Source: Escherichia phage AV108. Taken from it: a stretch of DNA of 64,000 nucleotides. Location: the sequence record OR352938.1; one strand, 5' to 3'. The notes beneath the pieces were generated by a model that saw nothing but the letters and a program-made list of their open reading frames with translations, was not told the DNA's origin and did not search any database. The stretch's first letter is position 1, and the number at the start of each line of letters is the position of its first letter. This document shows positions 2,963 through 35,235 of the stretch, piece after piece. Position numbers and translations under genes: made by a program.

Positions 2963-3936
2963 TATACGAACTCCAATTCAACCATTAATTGCATTAACAA
3001 AAAGACAATGTGAATCTCTTTATCAGCCGCGTGCGCAAACATCTGATTATTTTCACCGATAATCTCAGTGAGACGAATAATAGAAGCTGGCTTAACTTGA
3101 GTATACAACTCATTATAAAGTTTCTTGACAAATTGAGCGTATGTATTGGTATAGCGTGGCGCGAGTTTACGCACATTAGCAAACTGTTTAGTTTTAAGTG
3201 CTTCCACCACATCGGTTACTTCGGTATTGCTACTTTCGATAACCATGCTCAATACGCCAGCATCAATTTTACCATGTTTAGCGTAGCGGTCCAAAAGTTT
3301 CATTACGCGCCGGAAGTCTGGGAAGTTCTGCTTAACCAGTTCCGCCAATACGCGCATTTCTTCTACTGGCACACCTTCTTTATCAAGAATTGCTTTACAC
3401 CGGACGATCATTTCTTTCATCATGCGAAGCTGATCATCTTTAGTCGGAGATCCAAACGTGATGGGATCAAATCGAGATCGTAACGCCGGGATAATACCTT
3501 CTAGATCGTTTGCTGTGATAATGAATGTTACATTGTTTGAGTATGCCTCAGAGAAACTACGCAAGTGTCTTTGAGCGTCAGCCAACCCCGCTCGGTCATA
3601 CTCATCGATAATAACAACTTTGCCTTTTTCTCGTTTTTCTTCATCGAGTGATACACTCTGCGCAAAGCGTGTAATCTCATCGCGGATAAAATCAATCTTA
3701 CAATCTGCGCCGTTAACAAACAGATAATCAACACCCACATCTTCGCAAAGCGCCTTAGCAACGGTTGTTTTACCAGTACCCGGCGATGGGCTATGCAGAA
3801 TCATTGAAGGGATTCGGCCTTGCTTAACAATCTGCGCGAAGATCTTTTTATCTGCTTCCGGCAGAATACATTCAGAAATTGATTTCGGACGGTATTTCTG
3901 TTCCCACTGAAACTCATTTTCATTAACACTCAGCAT
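2962..3936 (-). CDS. 44: Clamp loader large subunit gp44 (AAA+ ATPase)
   Basis: Walker A SPSPGTGKTT, Walker B VIIDEYD, EQKYRP N-terminus as in T4 gp44; start placed at MLSVNENEF with GAGGTGA RBS (track start 3951 is inside the RBS). Confidence 0.9.
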   Translation of the reverse strand: MLSVNENEFQWEQKYRPKSISECILPEADKKIFAQIVKQGRIPSMILHSPSPGTGKTTVAKALCEDVGVDYLFVNGADCKIDFIRDEITRFAQSVSLDEEKREKGKVVIIDEYDRAGLADAQRHLRSFSEAYSNNVTFIITANDLEGIIPALRSRFDPITFGSPTKDDQLRMMKEMIVRCKAILDKEGVPVEEMRVLAELVKQNFPDFRRVMKLLDRYAKHGKIDAGVLSMVIESSNTEVTDVVEALKTKQFANVRKLAPRYTNTYAQFVKKLYNELYTQVKPASIIRLTEIIGENNQMFAHAADKEIHIVFLLMQLMVELEFV

Positions 3937-30402: not shown

Positions 30403-30801
30403 TTAATCCAGTCGAGTGAGTTTATAAATTGTTTTAAAGCATAGAGCTTTGATATCGTCTAAAACGCTCTGTAACGAGCTATCAACATCATTATAAATCT
30501 CACTAGCCATTTGCGTTAACTCTTGCAAATAGGCAATTTCGCTAATCTCCTTGCGGACGACCAACTTTGGCTGATAACGACCAGTGATCCCAATATTGGT
30601 TTCAGTGAAATTATCAACCAATTCTTGCATTTCAAGATAGAACTCTTCTAGAGCCTTATGTTTTGCATAAGATCCAGGACCAGTTACCCCAAAATGCGCA
30701 GAATGCATATAAGTAACACTCATCAGACATTCACCGATAAAGCGGTCAACTTTATTAGCCTTTCCCTCTTCGGACGTCTTTAGAAAATCACTGAATTTCA
30801 T
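30403..30801 (-). CDS. Hypothetical protein (~133 aa)
   Basis: Start MKFSDFLK; followed by a 220-nt untranslated tail. Confidence 0.45.
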   Translation of the reverse strand: MKFSDFLKTSEEGKANKVDRFIGECLMSVTYMHSAHFGVTGPGSYAKHKALEEFYLEMQELVDNFTETNIGITGRYQPKLVVRKEISEIAYLQELTQMASEIYNDVDSSLQSVLDDIKALCFKTIYKLTRLD

Positions 30802-31090
30802 GTTCTCGATTCTCCATATTATGCAACAGAACAAATTGTTGTGCGGCATATCCCCCCATAATAAAACACTGCCTAGAATCCATACATTTACTACGAGCAT
30901 ACATCTTCATAATATGGGCATGAAATTTCTGGCTGGTTTCAATGGAAGGAGATATTTTGTTTACATATACTATCATTGCGCCGTCGAAATAATCAGTAAA
31001 GTCACCAGTTGGATCATATTGATCAGCACTGACACTTCCGACCGCAGTCAAGCATATTGCCGCTGTTAGAGTTTTACGAATAAATGACAT
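30788..31090 (-). CDS. RI-like antiholin candidate (secreted/periplasmic, 100 aa)
   Basis: N-terminal signal sequence MSFIRKTLTAAICLTAVGSVSA, Cys pair in periplasmic domain, adjacent to tk as rI is in T4; similar size to T4 RI (97 aa). Confidence 0.4.
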   Translation of the reverse strand: MSFIRKTLTAAICLTAVGSVSADQYDPTGDFTDYFDGAMIVYVNKISPSIETSQKFHAHIMKMYARSKCMDSRQCFIMGGYAAQQFVLLHNMENREHEIQ

Positions 31091-31158
31091 AAGTCATTCC
31101 CCCAGATTGAAAATATTCAGTTATATTTATAATCCGGGGCTTTATTTATGATTAACTC

Positions 31159-31755
31159 TTATTTGGTAGTACCATCAATAAAATGTTTACGACACACAGA
31201 AACATATTTATCCTCTGCACCAACTTCTATTTGAGCACCATCGCGAATAACATTACCATCTTTATCTACGCGAAGGACCATAGTCGCTTTCTTGCCACAA
31301 TGACAAATACCCTTCATTTCGACCAGTTTATCAGCAAATGCCATTAATGCCGCAGATCCTTCAAATAGATTGCCCTGAAAGTCAGTGCGAAGGCCATAGC
31401 ACAGTACAGGGATATTAGCATCATCAACAAGCGCACACAAGCCTAAAACATGCTCTTTAGTCATAAATTGGGCTTCATCTACAAATACAGCATCAGGACG
31501 CCAGCGATCCGTTCTACGCTTACCTAGTGATTCACGATAAACCAAGTCGAAAAGATCATCCGATTTAGTGAAGGTGATCGCTGGAGCACTTAGACCAATT
31601 CGGGAAACGACTTCACTTTCTGAATCTCGATTATCAATCGCTGGTTTAAGAATTAATACTCGCATATCACGTTCGGTATAGTTATAAGCACTTTGTAACA
31701 GAGAAGTTGATTTGCCAGCGTTCATAGATGCATAGTAGAAATATAATTGCGCCAT
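31159..31755 (-). CDS. tk: Thymidine kinase
   Basis: P-loop MNAGKST, Walker B FVDEAQF, C-terminal zinc motif CHCG...C..H; length ~T4 Tk. Confidence 0.9.
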   Translation of the reverse strand: MAQLYFYYASMNAGKSTSLLQSAYNYTERDMRVLILKPAIDNRDSESEVVSRIGLSAPAITFTKSDDLFDLVYRESLGKRRTDRWRPDAVFVDEAQFMTKEHVLGLCALVDDANIPVLCYGLRTDFQGNLFEGSAALMAFADKLVEMKGICHCGKKATMVLRVDKDGNVIRDGAQIEVGAEDKYVSVCRKHFIDGTTK

Positions 31756-32048
31756 TAATTAATCTCCAAAAATCCAACAAGACCTAAACCGATATAAGTC
31801 CAGATACAAAGGAAAAAGAAGCAAACACCCATAGCAAAGATAAATCCGCGTAGTGTCTTTGGATAACCTACCCAATATTCCCGACCATCTTCTAACCGGA
31901 TCAACTTATTGCCTTGCGAGTCCATATCAACTACAACATGTTTATTTCGAGATTGCAATAGATATTGTTTTACAATCTCTACACCCGCCATAATAACAAT
32001 AACGAAAATAAAAGTCCACACAACAAGATTAATGATAGTCTCAAGCAT
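31755..32048 (-). CDS. Small membrane protein (97 aa)
   Basis: Two predicted TM helices (N- and C-terminal). Confidence 0.45.
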   Translation of the reverse strand: MLETIINLVVWTFIFVIVIMAGVEIVKQYLLQSRNKHVVVDMDSQGNKLIRLEDGREYWVGYPKTLRGFIFAMGVCFFFLCIWTYIGLGLVGFLEIN

Positions 32049-32283
32049 TTTCTATCACCTCCACCCAATCAGGTGTTTCCTGAAAGACTCCTTCACCTTC
32101 ATGATGGTCGCAACCTTTATTGCTGCAATACATCCACCAATCCCACATTCCCCACGGTAAACGCTGCATATCGTCGTTACAGCAAGTGAAGATAATAGGC
32201 CAACCACATCTAACACATCGGCAGTTTTCCTTCATGTGTGCGGTATTAGGCTTCTTCATAGATGACTCCAATATAATCGACAT
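32041..32283 (-). CDS. Cys-rich small protein (80 aa)
   Basis: CRCVRCGW...CCNDD...CSNKGCDHH metal-binding-like pattern. Confidence 0.45.
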   Translation of the reverse strand: MSIILESSMKKPNTAHMKENCRCVRCGWPIIFTCCNDDMQRLPWGMWDWWMYCSNKGCDHHEGEGVFQETPDWVEVIENA

Positions 32284-32486
32284 TTACATTTAGGGCAATG
32301 CGGTTCTTTAATATAATACCCGTCTGTCTTTGGAACACTAACAGGAGCGGTTTTTATATTGTATTCAGTGAAACAACGAAAACAAGTTACGTTTTCTACA
32401 GACTGACGTTTCACCCAATCACCGGAATATAGATCATTTTTATTTGTCATATTCAACCACCACAATGTTAATGTCTGGAGTAGCAA
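32256..32486 (-). CDS. Zinc-ribbon small protein (76 aa)
   Basis: CFRCF...CPKCKC pattern. Confidence 0.45.
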   Translation of the reverse strand: MLLQTLTLWWLNMTNKNDLYSGDWVKRQSVENVTCFRCFTEYNIKTAPVSVPKTDGYYIKEPHCPKCKCRLYWSHL

Positions 32487-32895
32487 TATTAATAATCTCT
32501 TCTACACACTCCCACTCAAGGCCACCGATACCGCAACCGATTTTAGGAATATAGAAAGGCTGTATAGCACCCTCAAAAACATCATTGAGAGACTCAAATC
32601 CTTTCAGGATAGCACCATATTCAGCATTTGGACCCGGTCGGAATTGGGTATAGAGATTCACCCCGCACCAGTTATAACCATTAACTTGATGCGTCCAGAT
32701 ACTAAACCCACCCAGCTTTTCTACCTTACCGCGAGAAGTTTGCTTGTCAATCTCTAACGCTTGCGGGAACTCTTTCGCGATCTTTGCAGCAATACCAGCA
32801 CCCATAGTATGAAAACAATTACAACCATGAATTAAATGACCGTTTCCTTGTTTAAACAGGGCGATGAGATCGCCCTTTACAGTATCAATAATCAT
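32440..32895 (-). CDS. Macrodomain protein, TARG1/OARD1/DarG-like
   Basis: 151 aa; VKGDLIALF, HGCNCFHTMGAGIAAKIAKEFP and IPKIGCGIGGLEWECVEEII motifs align with TARG1-type macrodomains as remembered. Confidence 0.65.
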   Translation of the reverse strand: MIIDTVKGDLIALFKQGNGHLIHGCNCFHTMGAGIAAKIAKEFPQALEIDKQTSRGKVEKLGGFSIWTHQVNGYNWCGVNLYTQFRPGPNAEYGAILKGFESLNDVFEGAIQPFYIPKIGCGIGGLEWECVEEIINIATPDINIVVVEYDK

Positions 32896-32910
32896 AATAT
32901 AAACCTCTCA

Positions 32911-33270
32911 TTAGTCACGGGAAGACAACCCAGCCATAAAACGGCTTAACAGTGTGTCGCGATAAGCAAAGCATAATTGCTTATCAGGGGCAGTATCACA
33001 AAGGTTGCGTTTTGTTTTAGCAAAGCTGGCAATACTCAGATCCCACGCTCGATTTTTTCGTTTTTCGTCTCGACCTTGTTTGTATGCTTCGTCGAGTTCA
33101 AGTGCGATAAAATCACTACACATGTTATCATCATCACAGAAAGTTTTAATGATCTTTTTGTTGATCTCAAATCCTTTGTATTCGAACTTTGGATAAGGGC
33201 GCTCATTACTAGCAAGCGCACCAGCCGAGAACATCATAGCAATCATAGCAATTATTGTCAACTTTTTCAT
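32911..33270 (-). CDS. Secreted protein (signal peptide, 119 aa)
   Basis: MKKLTIIAMIAMMFSAGALASN signal peptide; Cys-containing mature domain. Confidence 0.45.
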   Translation of the reverse strand: MKKLTIIAMIAMMFSAGALASNERPYPKFEYKGFEINKKIIKTFCDDDNMCSDFIALELDEAYKQGRDEKRKNRAWDLSIASFAKTKRNLCDTAPDKQLCFAYRDTLLSRFMAGLSSRD

Positions 33271-33277
33271 ATATTCC

Positions 33278-33868
33278 TCAATAGCGTTTAGTCTTAAGAA
33301 TGCCTTTACTCTTTAGATGGTTAGCCTTTTTTAGTACGTCATCAGCATAACCTAATCCGGCTTTATAGTTCCATCCAGCATTGTAAGAAGCTAGCGCGAG
33401 TCGGATATTACCGTTTCGAACATCCAGCCAGTATGCTAACTCATCCATCGCGTAGAATGCAGAAACCTCGCGATTCATGATAAAGTTGATAGTCTGGCGA
33501 TCACTCATTTTAACACCGCGCTTTGCATTTTTCGCTTTCACCGTTTTAAGGTAATTTTGAAATAATCCATAAGCATGATGATTTTTCTTTGGTGCTAAGT
33601 TTGCACCCGCGCTTGATTCTTGCCATGCGATACCCGCCAGGATGTGACCTAAACCCTTTCCGTTATAGCGAATATTCGGATGGTACTTTTTCAACTTACC
33701 GCTTTTCTCGAATTGCTCGCCGTATTGATAGGCGAAATGTAAATTATCTAGTTGGTGTGCTGTAAAGTTGTCTATCGGCGCTTTTTTGATCGGTGCGCTA
33801 GTCGATGCGTGTGTAGCACCAACGGCTAGTGACAGACTCAATACTATCGCTTTTAGAACTTTTAACAT
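33278..33868 (-). CDS. Secreted lytic transglycosylase (SLT domain)
   Basis: Signal peptide MLKVLKAIVLSLSLAVGATHAS; catalytic motifs AWQESSAG...AYGLFQ and ASYNAGWN (ES...GLMQ...AYNxG pattern). Confidence 0.6.
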   Translation of the reverse strand: MLKVLKAIVLSLSLAVGATHASTSAPIKKAPIDNFTAHQLDNLHFAYQYGEQFEKSGKLKKYHPNIRYNGKGLGHILAGIAWQESSAGANLAPKKNHHAYGLFQNYLKTVKAKNAKRGVKMSDRQTINFIMNREVSAFYAMDELAYWLDVRNGNIRLALASYNAGWNYKAGLGYADDVLKKANHLKSKGILKTKRY

Positions 33869-33953
33869 TAATTTCTCCTGTTTGGCTTAACTTTCTGATT
33901 CCATAATATAGCCCTATCACCAGAAAGTCAAGCATTATTTTAACCAATTTCCA

Positions 33954-34376
33954 TTATTGGTCTACCTTCAAAACAACCGCCGACATTTTACCCGCCAGTC
34001 GTTTTGGATTCTCTATAATCATTCGGCAGCATAGACCGTGATACGGCTTACCATCTTCGATTAGATCTACTGTCATCCCGATCCACATGTTACCGTCAGT
34101 AATTTCTAATCGATTCGGTCGGTCTTCCATTTTCAGGAAGTCGAAGATCTCCGGCAAACGAGTTTCTATCTTATTGAATAGTTCCATTGTCTTATGTTCA
34201 TCGATATGACGATCGGTTAGACGGTCGATCATATGCGGACTAAATCGAATGAAAATATACTCACCGTAACCATCATTCAAGCACTTTTCTTTGATCTGCG
34301 CATTGGTTTTGCGCATTTCGGTTTCGAAGAATCTACGCAGCTTACTACGGCGAACATGTACGTTAATTGTTTCCAT
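33954..34376 (-). CDS. Hypothetical protein (~140 aa)
   Basis: Start METINVHV (internal ATG); track start overlaps upstream ORF. Confidence 0.4.
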   Translation of the reverse strand: METINVHVRRSKLRRFFETEMRKTNAQIKEKCLNDGYGEYIFIRFSPHMIDRLTDRHIDEHKTMELFNKIETRLPEIFDFLKMEDRPNRLEITDGNMWIGMTVDLIEDGKPYHGLCCRMIIENPKRLAGKMSAVVLKVDQ

Positions 34377-34380
34377 TTTA

Positions 34381-34716
34381 TTATCCTTTCTTAAACAAAT
34401 TGCGAAGCCAGTATACAAACGGGATTTCTTTAAACTTGAATTTCTCAATAGTTAATTCTTTAGTAGCAAGATGAATACCATAAGCATCATGTGTAACTAT
34501 ATGCCATTTTCTATAGTCCAAATGTGAACAACCGTCTGGATCTAGGTTAATAAGAGTTTCTCGCTCACTAGGATTATTTTTCCACAATTTTGTAATAGGA
34601 TCGCACATAATTCGACCTAGCGTACCATGAATAATCTCACAACGGTAAAGTTTTCCAGCAGTGAGATAGGCGCACCCGTCATAGTCGGTATAAACAAACA
34701 CTTCTTTAACACTCAT
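34381..34716 (-). CDS. CSHL-motif small protein (paralog 1 of 3)
   Basis: DPDGCSHLDYRKWHIV motif shared with two downstream ORFs; after promoter cassette. Confidence 0.5.
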   Translation of the reverse strand: MSVKEVFVYTDYDGCAYLTAGKLYRCEIIHGTLGRIMCDPITKLWKNNPSERETLINLDPDGCSHLDYRKWHIVTHDAYGIHLATKELTIEKFKFKEIPFVYWLRNLFKKG

Positions 34717-34745
34717 TTTAATACTCCTTTGTTGTTTCGATGGGG

Positions 34746-34775
34746 GTATATTACTACCCCCCGATCATGTGTGTC
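34746..34775 (-). promoter_or_regulatory. sigma70-type early promoter
   Basis: TTGACA-N18-TAATAT embedded in GGGGGTAGTAATATACCCCC palindrome. Confidence 0.45.
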
Positions 34776-34777
34776 AA

Positions 34778-35038
34778 CTACTTTTTCAAGATTTTTTTGA
34801 TTGCATTCCAAAGACCTTTATTCCCAGGTTGTTTTGGTTCTTCGATCAGTGTCCATGTTCGACCGTCTAAGTGTGCACAATTTTTAAGACAAATAAAAAT
34901 CTGGTGTCCCTTATCATCACGGATATAACCACTATTCGCAAATCTTTCATGTGGTGTATATTCATACAGTGTATTTGGTGTAATATACTTGCGGTTACTA
35001 TAAGGTGTCATCACATACATCATGGTACTAACTCCCAA
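34778..35038 (-). CDS. CSHL-motif small protein (paralog 2)
   Basis: NCAHLDGRTWTLIEE motif. Confidence 0.45.
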   Translation of the reverse strand: MGVSTMMYVMTPYSNRKYITPNTLYEYTPHERFANSGYIRDDKGHQIFICLKNCAHLDGRTWTLIEEPKQPGNKGLWNAIKKILKK

Positions 35039-35214
35039 CGATCACCGCGAAGATGAGAACATCCACCATCAAGAAGTATCGTAATACGATAACCTATATC
35101 ATCTTTGATGTAACCGATTGTCGGTGGATTTTCGTCGTCTCGTGCCGGGGTAAAATCATACATCTTTCCAGGCGTAATATCTTGTCCTTTATTGCTATTG
35201 GTATAAACTTGCAT
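35020..35214 (-). CDS. CSHL-motif small protein (paralog 3)
   Basis: GGCSHLRGDRWELV motif. Confidence 0.45.
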   Translation of the reverse strand: MQVYTNSNKGQDITPGKMYDFTPARDDENPPTIGYIKDDIGYRITILLDGGCSHLRGDRWELVP

Positions 35215-35235
35215 TTTCTTAATCTCCTATATTAA

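Follow-up and report, generated by a model that had tools for sequence, protein, structure and literature searches.

A 64,000-nucleotide stretch of the Escherichia phage AV108 genome (sequence record OR352938.1; the whole stretch is called the window below) carries on its minus strand, side by side, orthologues of the phage T4 genes vs.1 and vs. The molecular identity of the pair is solid: a GH23 enzyme of the secreted type adjoins a small helical protein that is also of the secreted type. We infer, at about even chances of being right, that Vs.1 is an early lytic transglycosylase exported by Sec, that its action on murein in the periplasm is modulated by the co-exported Vs, and that the two play an accessory part around lysis or lysis inhibition.

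More than 50 genomes of the RB49/JSE type match positions 31000-36000 of the window at 97-99% identity, and judged by this sequence its phage is a Krischvirus, that is, an RB49/JSE-type T4-like coliphage. A preliminary description of the window had placed both open reading frames (ORFs) correctly, but had missed that they lie on the minus strand and that they correspond to vs.1 and vs, T4 genes with a long-standing annotation. In the annotation of phage JSE, vs.1 is a "conserved hypothetical protein" and vs a "valyl-tRNA synthetase modifier". PHROGs assigns the larger ORF to phrog_600 (E = 1e-59) and the smaller one to phrog_1256 (E = 1.8e-33), and NCBIfam gives no match for either protein. 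The order regB, vs.1, vs is the same in the window, JSE and T4. T4 Vs.1 (ORF 61.4; PHROG 600) is about 52% identical to the window protein over residues 35-192, and the two phages have the signal peptide, the motifs and the gene order in common; in the window protein the signal peptide is followed by about 14 additional residues (STSAPIKKAPID), which are absent from T4. T4 Vs (PHROG 1256, Pfam PF26829) is 29% identical to the window Vs and occupies the same place directly after vs.1. Plus-strand ORFs overlapping the two genes (e.g., 32977-33291) had no support and were set aside. The two genes are as follows.

33278..33868, minus strand: vs.1 orthologue, a precursor of 196 amino acids with a signal peptide and a single GH23/SLT domain
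32911..33270, minus strand: vs orthologue, a precursor of 119 amino acids with a signal peptide and a small four-helix domain

The SLT/GH23 domain of Vs.1

Vs.1 matches the Pfam family SLT (PF01464) over residues 76-167 with 25.8 bits (E = 8.1e-6), a narrow margin above the gathering score of 21.3. The Pfam check proposed in the preliminary description therefore came out in its favor, and the SLT motifs that it had read in this ORF (AWQESSAG, AYGLFQ and ASYNAGWN) are present exactly as written, within GIAWQESSAG, HHAYGLFQN and LASYNAGWN. Family-1 lytic transglycosylases carry the motifs E-S, G-L-x-Q and (A/S)-Y-N-x-G, and by this established scheme the corresponding residues of Vs.1 are WQE84SS, G101-L-F-Q104 and S161-Y-N-A-G165. 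Among 24 Vs.1 homologues, E84, S86, H97, A99, Y100, G101, F103, Q104, N105, S161, Y162, A164, G165 and Y174 are invariant. The presumed catalytic acid is located as follows.

33617..33619, minus strand: codon GAA of Glu84, in the WQES motif, invariant in the 24 homologues

Between E84 and Q104, the 24-homologue alignment holds no second invariant acidic residue, which would fit transglycosylase chemistry better than lysozyme chemistry.

The AlphaFold model of Vs.1 (mean predicted local distance difference test score 84) has a goose-lysozyme-like alpha-helical fold, and its top Foldseek matches are the lytic transglycosylases MltD, Slt and LtgA. Sequence searches of the PDB returned nothing meaningful with either the single Vs.1 sequence or the 24-sequence profile, so the Vs.1 family is very divergent, and fold comparison was needed to place it. 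The predicted mature protein has 175 amino acids, a mass of 19.8 kDa and an isoelectric point of 9.9. Like the family-1 GH23 transglycosylases Slt70, MltC, MltD, MltE/EmtA and MltF, Vs.1 has the ES, GLxQ and (A/S)YNAG motifs at compatible spacing, and its predicted location is the periplasm. It differs from the bacterial enzymes in its strong divergence, in having a single domain with neither a lipid anchor nor accessory domains, in an N-terminal helix peculiar to the family (F-x3-Q-x3-L-x2-AY-x2-G) and an HH pair ahead of motif II, and in being phage-encoded and made early. A tblastn search of plasmids with Vs.1 found no match, and thus no link to the transglycosylases of conjugation or secretion systems.

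Predicted export signals of both proteins and the cysteines of Vs

The N-terminus of Vs.1, MLKVLKAIVLSLSLAVGATHA followed by STS, has two Lys, a hydrophobic core of 12-13 residues and small residues at -3 and -1, and lacks a lipobox Cys. That of Vs, MKKLTIIAMIAMMFSAGALA followed by SNE, has the same three-part layout, with a basic start, a core of 12-13 residues, small residues at -3 and -1 and no lipobox. By heuristic analysis, both proteins have the layout of a signal peptidase I substrate (basic n-region, core of 7-15 residues, small -3 and -1 residues, no lipobox). Cleavage is placed, again heuristically, after A21 of Vs.1 and after A20 of Vs.

33806..33868, minus strand: predicted Sec signal peptide of Vs.1 (heuristic), residues 1-21, cut between THA and STS, kept in 23 of 24 homologues
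33211..33270, minus strand: predicted Sec signal peptide of Vs (heuristic), residues 1-20, cut between ALA and SNE, kept in about 50 of 52 family members

The exceptions in both families are N-terminally truncated fragments. A crude signal-peptide filter passes 2 of the 111 non-overlapping window ORFs of at least 60 amino acids, and these two are the neighbors Vs.1 and Vs. The T4 proteins also have signal peptides, MRKALLAGLLAISMMAHS in Vs.1 and MTKILVLCIGLISFSASASA in Vs, as do orthologues in the Acinetobacter phage Acj61, in a Klebsiella phage and in Vi01-like and Felix-O1-like phages. Such conservation is a more convincing sign of export than heuristic scoring, and it bears out the earlier claims of a cleavable-type signal peptide on the larger ORF and of a signal peptide on its neighbor.

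The structural model of Vs is small and all-helical, with four helices and no specific structural match; the predicted mature protein has 99 amino acids, a mass of 11.6 kDa and an isoelectric point of 8.3. Across 52 Vs homologues, C45, C51, C91 and C100 (CX5C and CX8-10C) are invariant, and so are G66 and G114-L115. The cysteines fall into two candidate pairs.

33118..33138, minus strand: CX5C pair, codons of Cys45 and Cys51, at the turn that joins helices 1 and 2 of the model, predicted disulfide with putative pairing, invariant in 52 homologues
32971..33000, minus strand: CX8C pair, codons of Cys91 and Cys100, in the loop ahead of helix 4, predicted disulfide with putative pairing, invariant in 52 homologues

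A conserved signal peptide together with invariant Cys pairs that do not form a metal-ligand pattern marks a periplasmic protein with disulfide bonds, and the four invariant cysteines would lend indirect support to an oxidizing compartment. An exhaustive HMMER search of 1.84 billion proteins with a Vs profile gave 28 clusters (50% identity) of about 100-135 amino acids, with one repetitive outlier, and no informative distant relatives. A secretion-system transglycosylase with a modulating partner, EtgA with EscI, offers a precedent for the pairing of Vs.1 with Vs; however, vs.1 and vs have neither a secretion-system context nor plasmid homologues, and similarity of Vs to EscI, or to any solved protein, was not detected. 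The periplasmic muralytic inhibitors Ivy, PliG and MliC are beta-rich, whereas Vs is all-helical, and neither these three nor Spackle show fold or sequence similarity to Vs.

The signal peptide and the invariant cysteines of Vs conflict with its annotated role, which needs contact with a cytoplasmic enzyme; the cytoplasmic location that the "valyl-tRNA synthetase modifier" class requires is not what the sequence predicts, and the conflict holds family-wide rather than in the window phage only. It is unlikely, in our view, that the annotation is right and that Vs is a cytoplasmic peptide binding valyl-tRNA synthetase, with an N-terminus that is unused for export or gives only partial export, and with an adjacency to vs.1 that is inherited order without function. 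A factor of about 10 kDa, reportedly described in the 1970s, would be close in mass to mature T4 Vs (predicted, 11.0 kDa) and so would speak for a cytoplasmic Vs. The same can be said of the use of the name by GenBank records, PHROGs and Pfam PF26829, of the classical biochemistry cited in the literature, and of the lack of specific co-evolution between Vs and Vs.1 (see below). Such a Vs is hard to reconcile with the finding that every full-length member, across a range of about 20-97% identity, keeps a canonical signal peptide and the four invariant cysteines, or with the secreted-protein genes that flank vs on both sides in many phages. Moreover, the 1986 T4 sequence record calls the gene just "ORF 60.9" and does not connect it with vs, and later evidence tying the genetic locus vs to this ORF was not found in the literature accessible to the analysis; knockdown of vs was also without fitness effect in a T4 screen. 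Full-length, His-tagged T4 Vs is insoluble in the E. coli cytoplasm, which is weakly suggestive of an unexported precursor. The name of Vs is probably wrong or incomplete.

Linkage, expression and gene neighborhoods

The junction of the two genes and the region upstream of vs.1 have the following features in the window.

33271..33280, minus strand: vs.1/vs junction, where the TGA that ends vs.1 and the ribosome-binding site of vs (TGAGGAATAT, then ATG) overlap
33875..33879, minus strand: Shine-Dalgarno sequence AGGAG, read from the sequence, 6 nucleotides upstream of the vs.1 ATG
33903..33931, minus strand: putative sigma-70-type promoter, TTGACT, a 17-nucleotide spacer and TATTAT, A-rich upstream, 10/12 in a consensus scan
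33954-34448, minus strand: regB, upstream of vs.1 (Pfam RegB, E = 2.6e-48, residues 29-161)

The overlap of the vs.1 stop codon with the vs ribosome-binding site suggests translational coupling. The promoter-like site lies within the 85-nucleotide gap between regB and vs.1. The AGGAG sequence ahead of vs.1 includes GGAG, the motif cleaved by RegB in early mRNAs. The regB ORF as called has a TTG start and 164 amino acids, and the JSE product, of 140 amino acids, would start at an internal METINVH. The best promoter-like match of the region is a different one, at 33233-33261 on the minus strand (TTGACA, 17 nucleotides, TATGAT, with an upstream TG, 11/12); it lies within the signal-peptide coding part of vs and may be a chance match or may, as an internal promoter, serve tk.4 and the genes that follow it. 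An Rfam scan of 30-36 kb of the window found no RNA family.

In T4, vs.1 and vs belong to the early RNA class and their protein appears in the middle period, which indicates that both proteins are made. The expression from the early region proposed in the preliminary description agrees with this and with the sigma-70-type site among early genes. In the CRISPRi-ART screen, T4 vs.1 was classed as Semi-fit, with a fitness of 0.81 (threshold 0.7; Kolmogorov-Smirnov P = 0.099), and is one of five genes in this class whose function is wholly unknown; T4 vs was classed as Not fit (0.35).

Among 69 IMG/VR loci with a Vs.1 relative, vs lies directly downstream in 38, with a gap of -8 to +7 nucleotides. 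The remaining 31, from Aeromonas-phage types and more distant relatives, keep the signal peptide of the enzyme and lack Vs, and Vi01 and a Felix-O1-like phage also have a vs.1 relative without vs. From the side of Vs, vs.1 is immediately upstream in all eight loci examined, exact-protein look-ups being part of the search. In two metagenomic T4-like loci (L080 and L081), the genes e (T4-type lysozyme), vs.1 and vs are followed by genes for a secreted protein of 137 amino acids and a membrane protein and then by rI, all overlapping or abutting, and phage Acj61 and the locus L082 have this order without e. In two distant lineages (L050 and L051), a Vs.1-like gene lies directly upstream of i-spanin, o-spanin and pseT. 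These neighborhoods favor a link to lysis or lysis inhibition.

These distant Vs.1-like genes (about 33% identity; L050 2842-4183 and L051 2929-4227) are followed at once, in both lineages, by an i-spanin that has an N-terminal transmembrane segment and a coiled coil, then by an overlapping o-spanin with a lipobox, and then by pseT. In L051 the enzyme itself may be lipid-anchored, through a possible lipobox, VAS-C.

Two further window genes bear on a role in lysis.

37692-38081, minus strand: endolysin with a Peptidase_M15_4 domain (E = 4.4e-12), of the peptidase type and not a T4 e-type lysozyme
30788-31090, minus strand: rI antiholin gene, 1.8 kb downstream of vs and preceded by tk

The preliminary description had rightly kept the transglycosylase apart from the endolysin at 37692-38081. 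Vs.1 could still be a latent signal-peptide endolysin, held inactive in the periplasm by Vs or by the energized membrane and activated when the holin collapses the membrane potential, so that it supplements or hastens the main endolysin; we regard this as rather unlikely. A signal peptide joined to a muralytic domain is the architecture of signal-peptide endolysins. In the T4-like Campylobacter phage F352, the endolysin is a signal-peptide SLT protein of similar length (188 amino acids) that depends on Sec, as shown experimentally, and on the holin. In phage F379, of a related genus, a small lysis-inhibitor gene overlaps the SLT endolysin gene, modulates the enzyme and delays lysis. The overlap of vs.1 with e in L080 and L081 and the spanin genes abutting its distant relatives point the same way. 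However, the F352 and F379 enzymes are the sole endolysins of their phages, whereas the window, like T4, has a separate dedicated endolysin, and Vs.1 does not qualify as the lysis enzyme itself. Their inhibitor gene also lies upstream of the enzyme gene, whereas vs lies downstream of vs.1, and vs.1 transcription is early and not late, by promoter type and by the T4 early RNA. Because T4 e mutants fail to lyse, Vs.1 is no substitute for E. The F352 endolysin was rejected as a relative of Vs.1, since the comparison with the Vs.1 profile was not significant (hhalign probability 1.6%, no detectable homology beyond the superfamily), and is treated here as an analogue.

The spanin and rI neighborhoods would also suit a specialized "space-making" transglycosylase, of the kind that serves secretion systems and flagella, that opens murein locally for the formation or work of envelope-spanning assemblies, such as spanin bridges or holin-antiholin complexes, or that changes the wall so as to exclude superinfecting phages, with Vs as a helper or targeting factor. 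Relatives of vs.1 adjoin spanin genes, and in many phages vs.1 belongs to a series of genes for secreted and membrane proteins that ends at rI. We nonetheless find this quite improbable, because spanins and RI work in phages without vs.1, and tblastn found no plasmid or secretion-system homologues. Nothing found in this analysis connects vs.1 or vs with superinfection exclusion.

The other genes downstream of vs in the window are the following.

32440-32895, minus strand: tk.4, a macro-domain gene downstream of vs (Pfam Macro, E = 6e-7)
31755-32048, 32041-32283 and 32256-32486, minus strand: genes between vs and tk for a protein of 97 amino acids and for two overlapping small zinc-binding proteins (PF23895, PF23903)

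The tk.4 orthologue partly matches a model of the DarG antitoxin ADP-ribosyl glycohydrolase (E = 3.5e-13, far under the model cutoff), and its product may be an ADP-ribose-removing counter-defense enzyme. The 97-amino acid protein (phrog_16027) has two or three hydrophobic segments and is a membrane protein.

In many T4-like genera, a third secreted family is encoded directly downstream of vs. Its members have 130-148 amino acids, a signal peptide, two conserved Cys and a mature N-terminus with the pattern W-E/D/S-x-L/V-P/S-G-Y-P, and the Klebsiella-phage member is phrog_4957. No homologue was found in the window, T4 or JSE.

L003 2330-2755; L004 2240-2632; L080 2827-3240; L082 2827-3270: third secreted family
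L023, L025, L026, L039-L044, L048 and L049, with the ORF start at about 3794-3879: third secreted family

The favored reading and its significance

In the reading that we favor, vs.1 and vs would form a small operon expressed from the early sigma-70-type promoter. Vs.1 would be exported by Sec, lose its signal peptide and become soluble in the periplasm, where, as a family-1-type lytic transglycosylase with Glu84 as its single catalytic acid, it would cut the glycan strands of host murein well ahead of holin-triggered lysis. The same message would yield Vs, probably by translation coupled to that of vs.1, and Vs would also be exported, folding as a disulfide-stapled four-helix protein. It would then work beside Vs.1 in the periplasm rather than on valyl-tRNA synthetase in the cytoplasm, and would most likely modulate the activity or targeting of Vs.1. 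The role of the pair would most likely be accessory and non-essential: to condition the sacculus and in this way tune lysis or lysis inhibition.

Several points weigh against this reading. In classical genetic work, T4 reportedly supports a temperature-sensitive valS host in a way that vs mutants alter, which would be an intracellular effect on valyl-tRNA synthetase. GH23 also takes in the hydrolytic goose-type lysozymes, so the Vs.1 sequence alone is no proof of a transglycosylase over a hydrolase. Since some vs.1 relatives have no vs beside them, Vs is an add-on rather than an obligatory partner or inhibitor. All through the T4-like genomes the order of genes is conserved, which makes nearness to rI weak evidence by itself. 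In a mirror-tree analysis, the correlation between Vs.1 and Vs (r = 0.75) was lower than that between Vs.1 and its unrelated neighbor RegB (r = 0.94), and thus gave no signal of specific co-evolution. The Semi-fit call of T4 vs.1 falls below significance (P = 0.099), and a knockdown at the vs.1 start could have a polar effect on vs. Finally, the literature holds no experiment that we could find on export, activity or binding for any member of the Vs.1 or Vs families.

A broader proposal is that the Vs family has been misnamed or mislocalized and that Vs is a periplasmic, disulfide-bonded regulator of Vs.1, the two belonging to an unrecognized early envelope module of T4-like phages that tunes lysis or lysis inhibition and that has a third secreted protein in many genera. 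This is possible, although we would put it on the lower side of even.

The SLT similarity of vs.1 is already known, having been published in 2006 and termed "marginal", and the window genes are ordinary orthologues of T4 genes. The conserved export signals on both proteins, the invariant Cys pairs of Vs and the recurrence of the pair among lysis genes were not found stated in the accessible literature. Taken as a whole, the interpretation given in the preliminary description is partly supported.

T4 is the best-studied lytic phage, yet vs.1 is among only five genes of wholly unknown function with a fitness signal in a genome-wide knockdown. If its product is viewed as a murein transglycosylase that is exported and that is made minutes after infection, vs.1 would gain a concrete and testable biochemical role, and the pathway of lysis and lysis inhibition, commonly taken as fully described, would have one more component. 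Hundreds of phage genomes label a secreted-looking protein "valyl-tRNA synthetase modifier", an annotation that would need correction. Either a 50-year-old assignment of gene to protein is mistaken, or a protein that is secreted acts, unexpectedly, in the cytoplasm.

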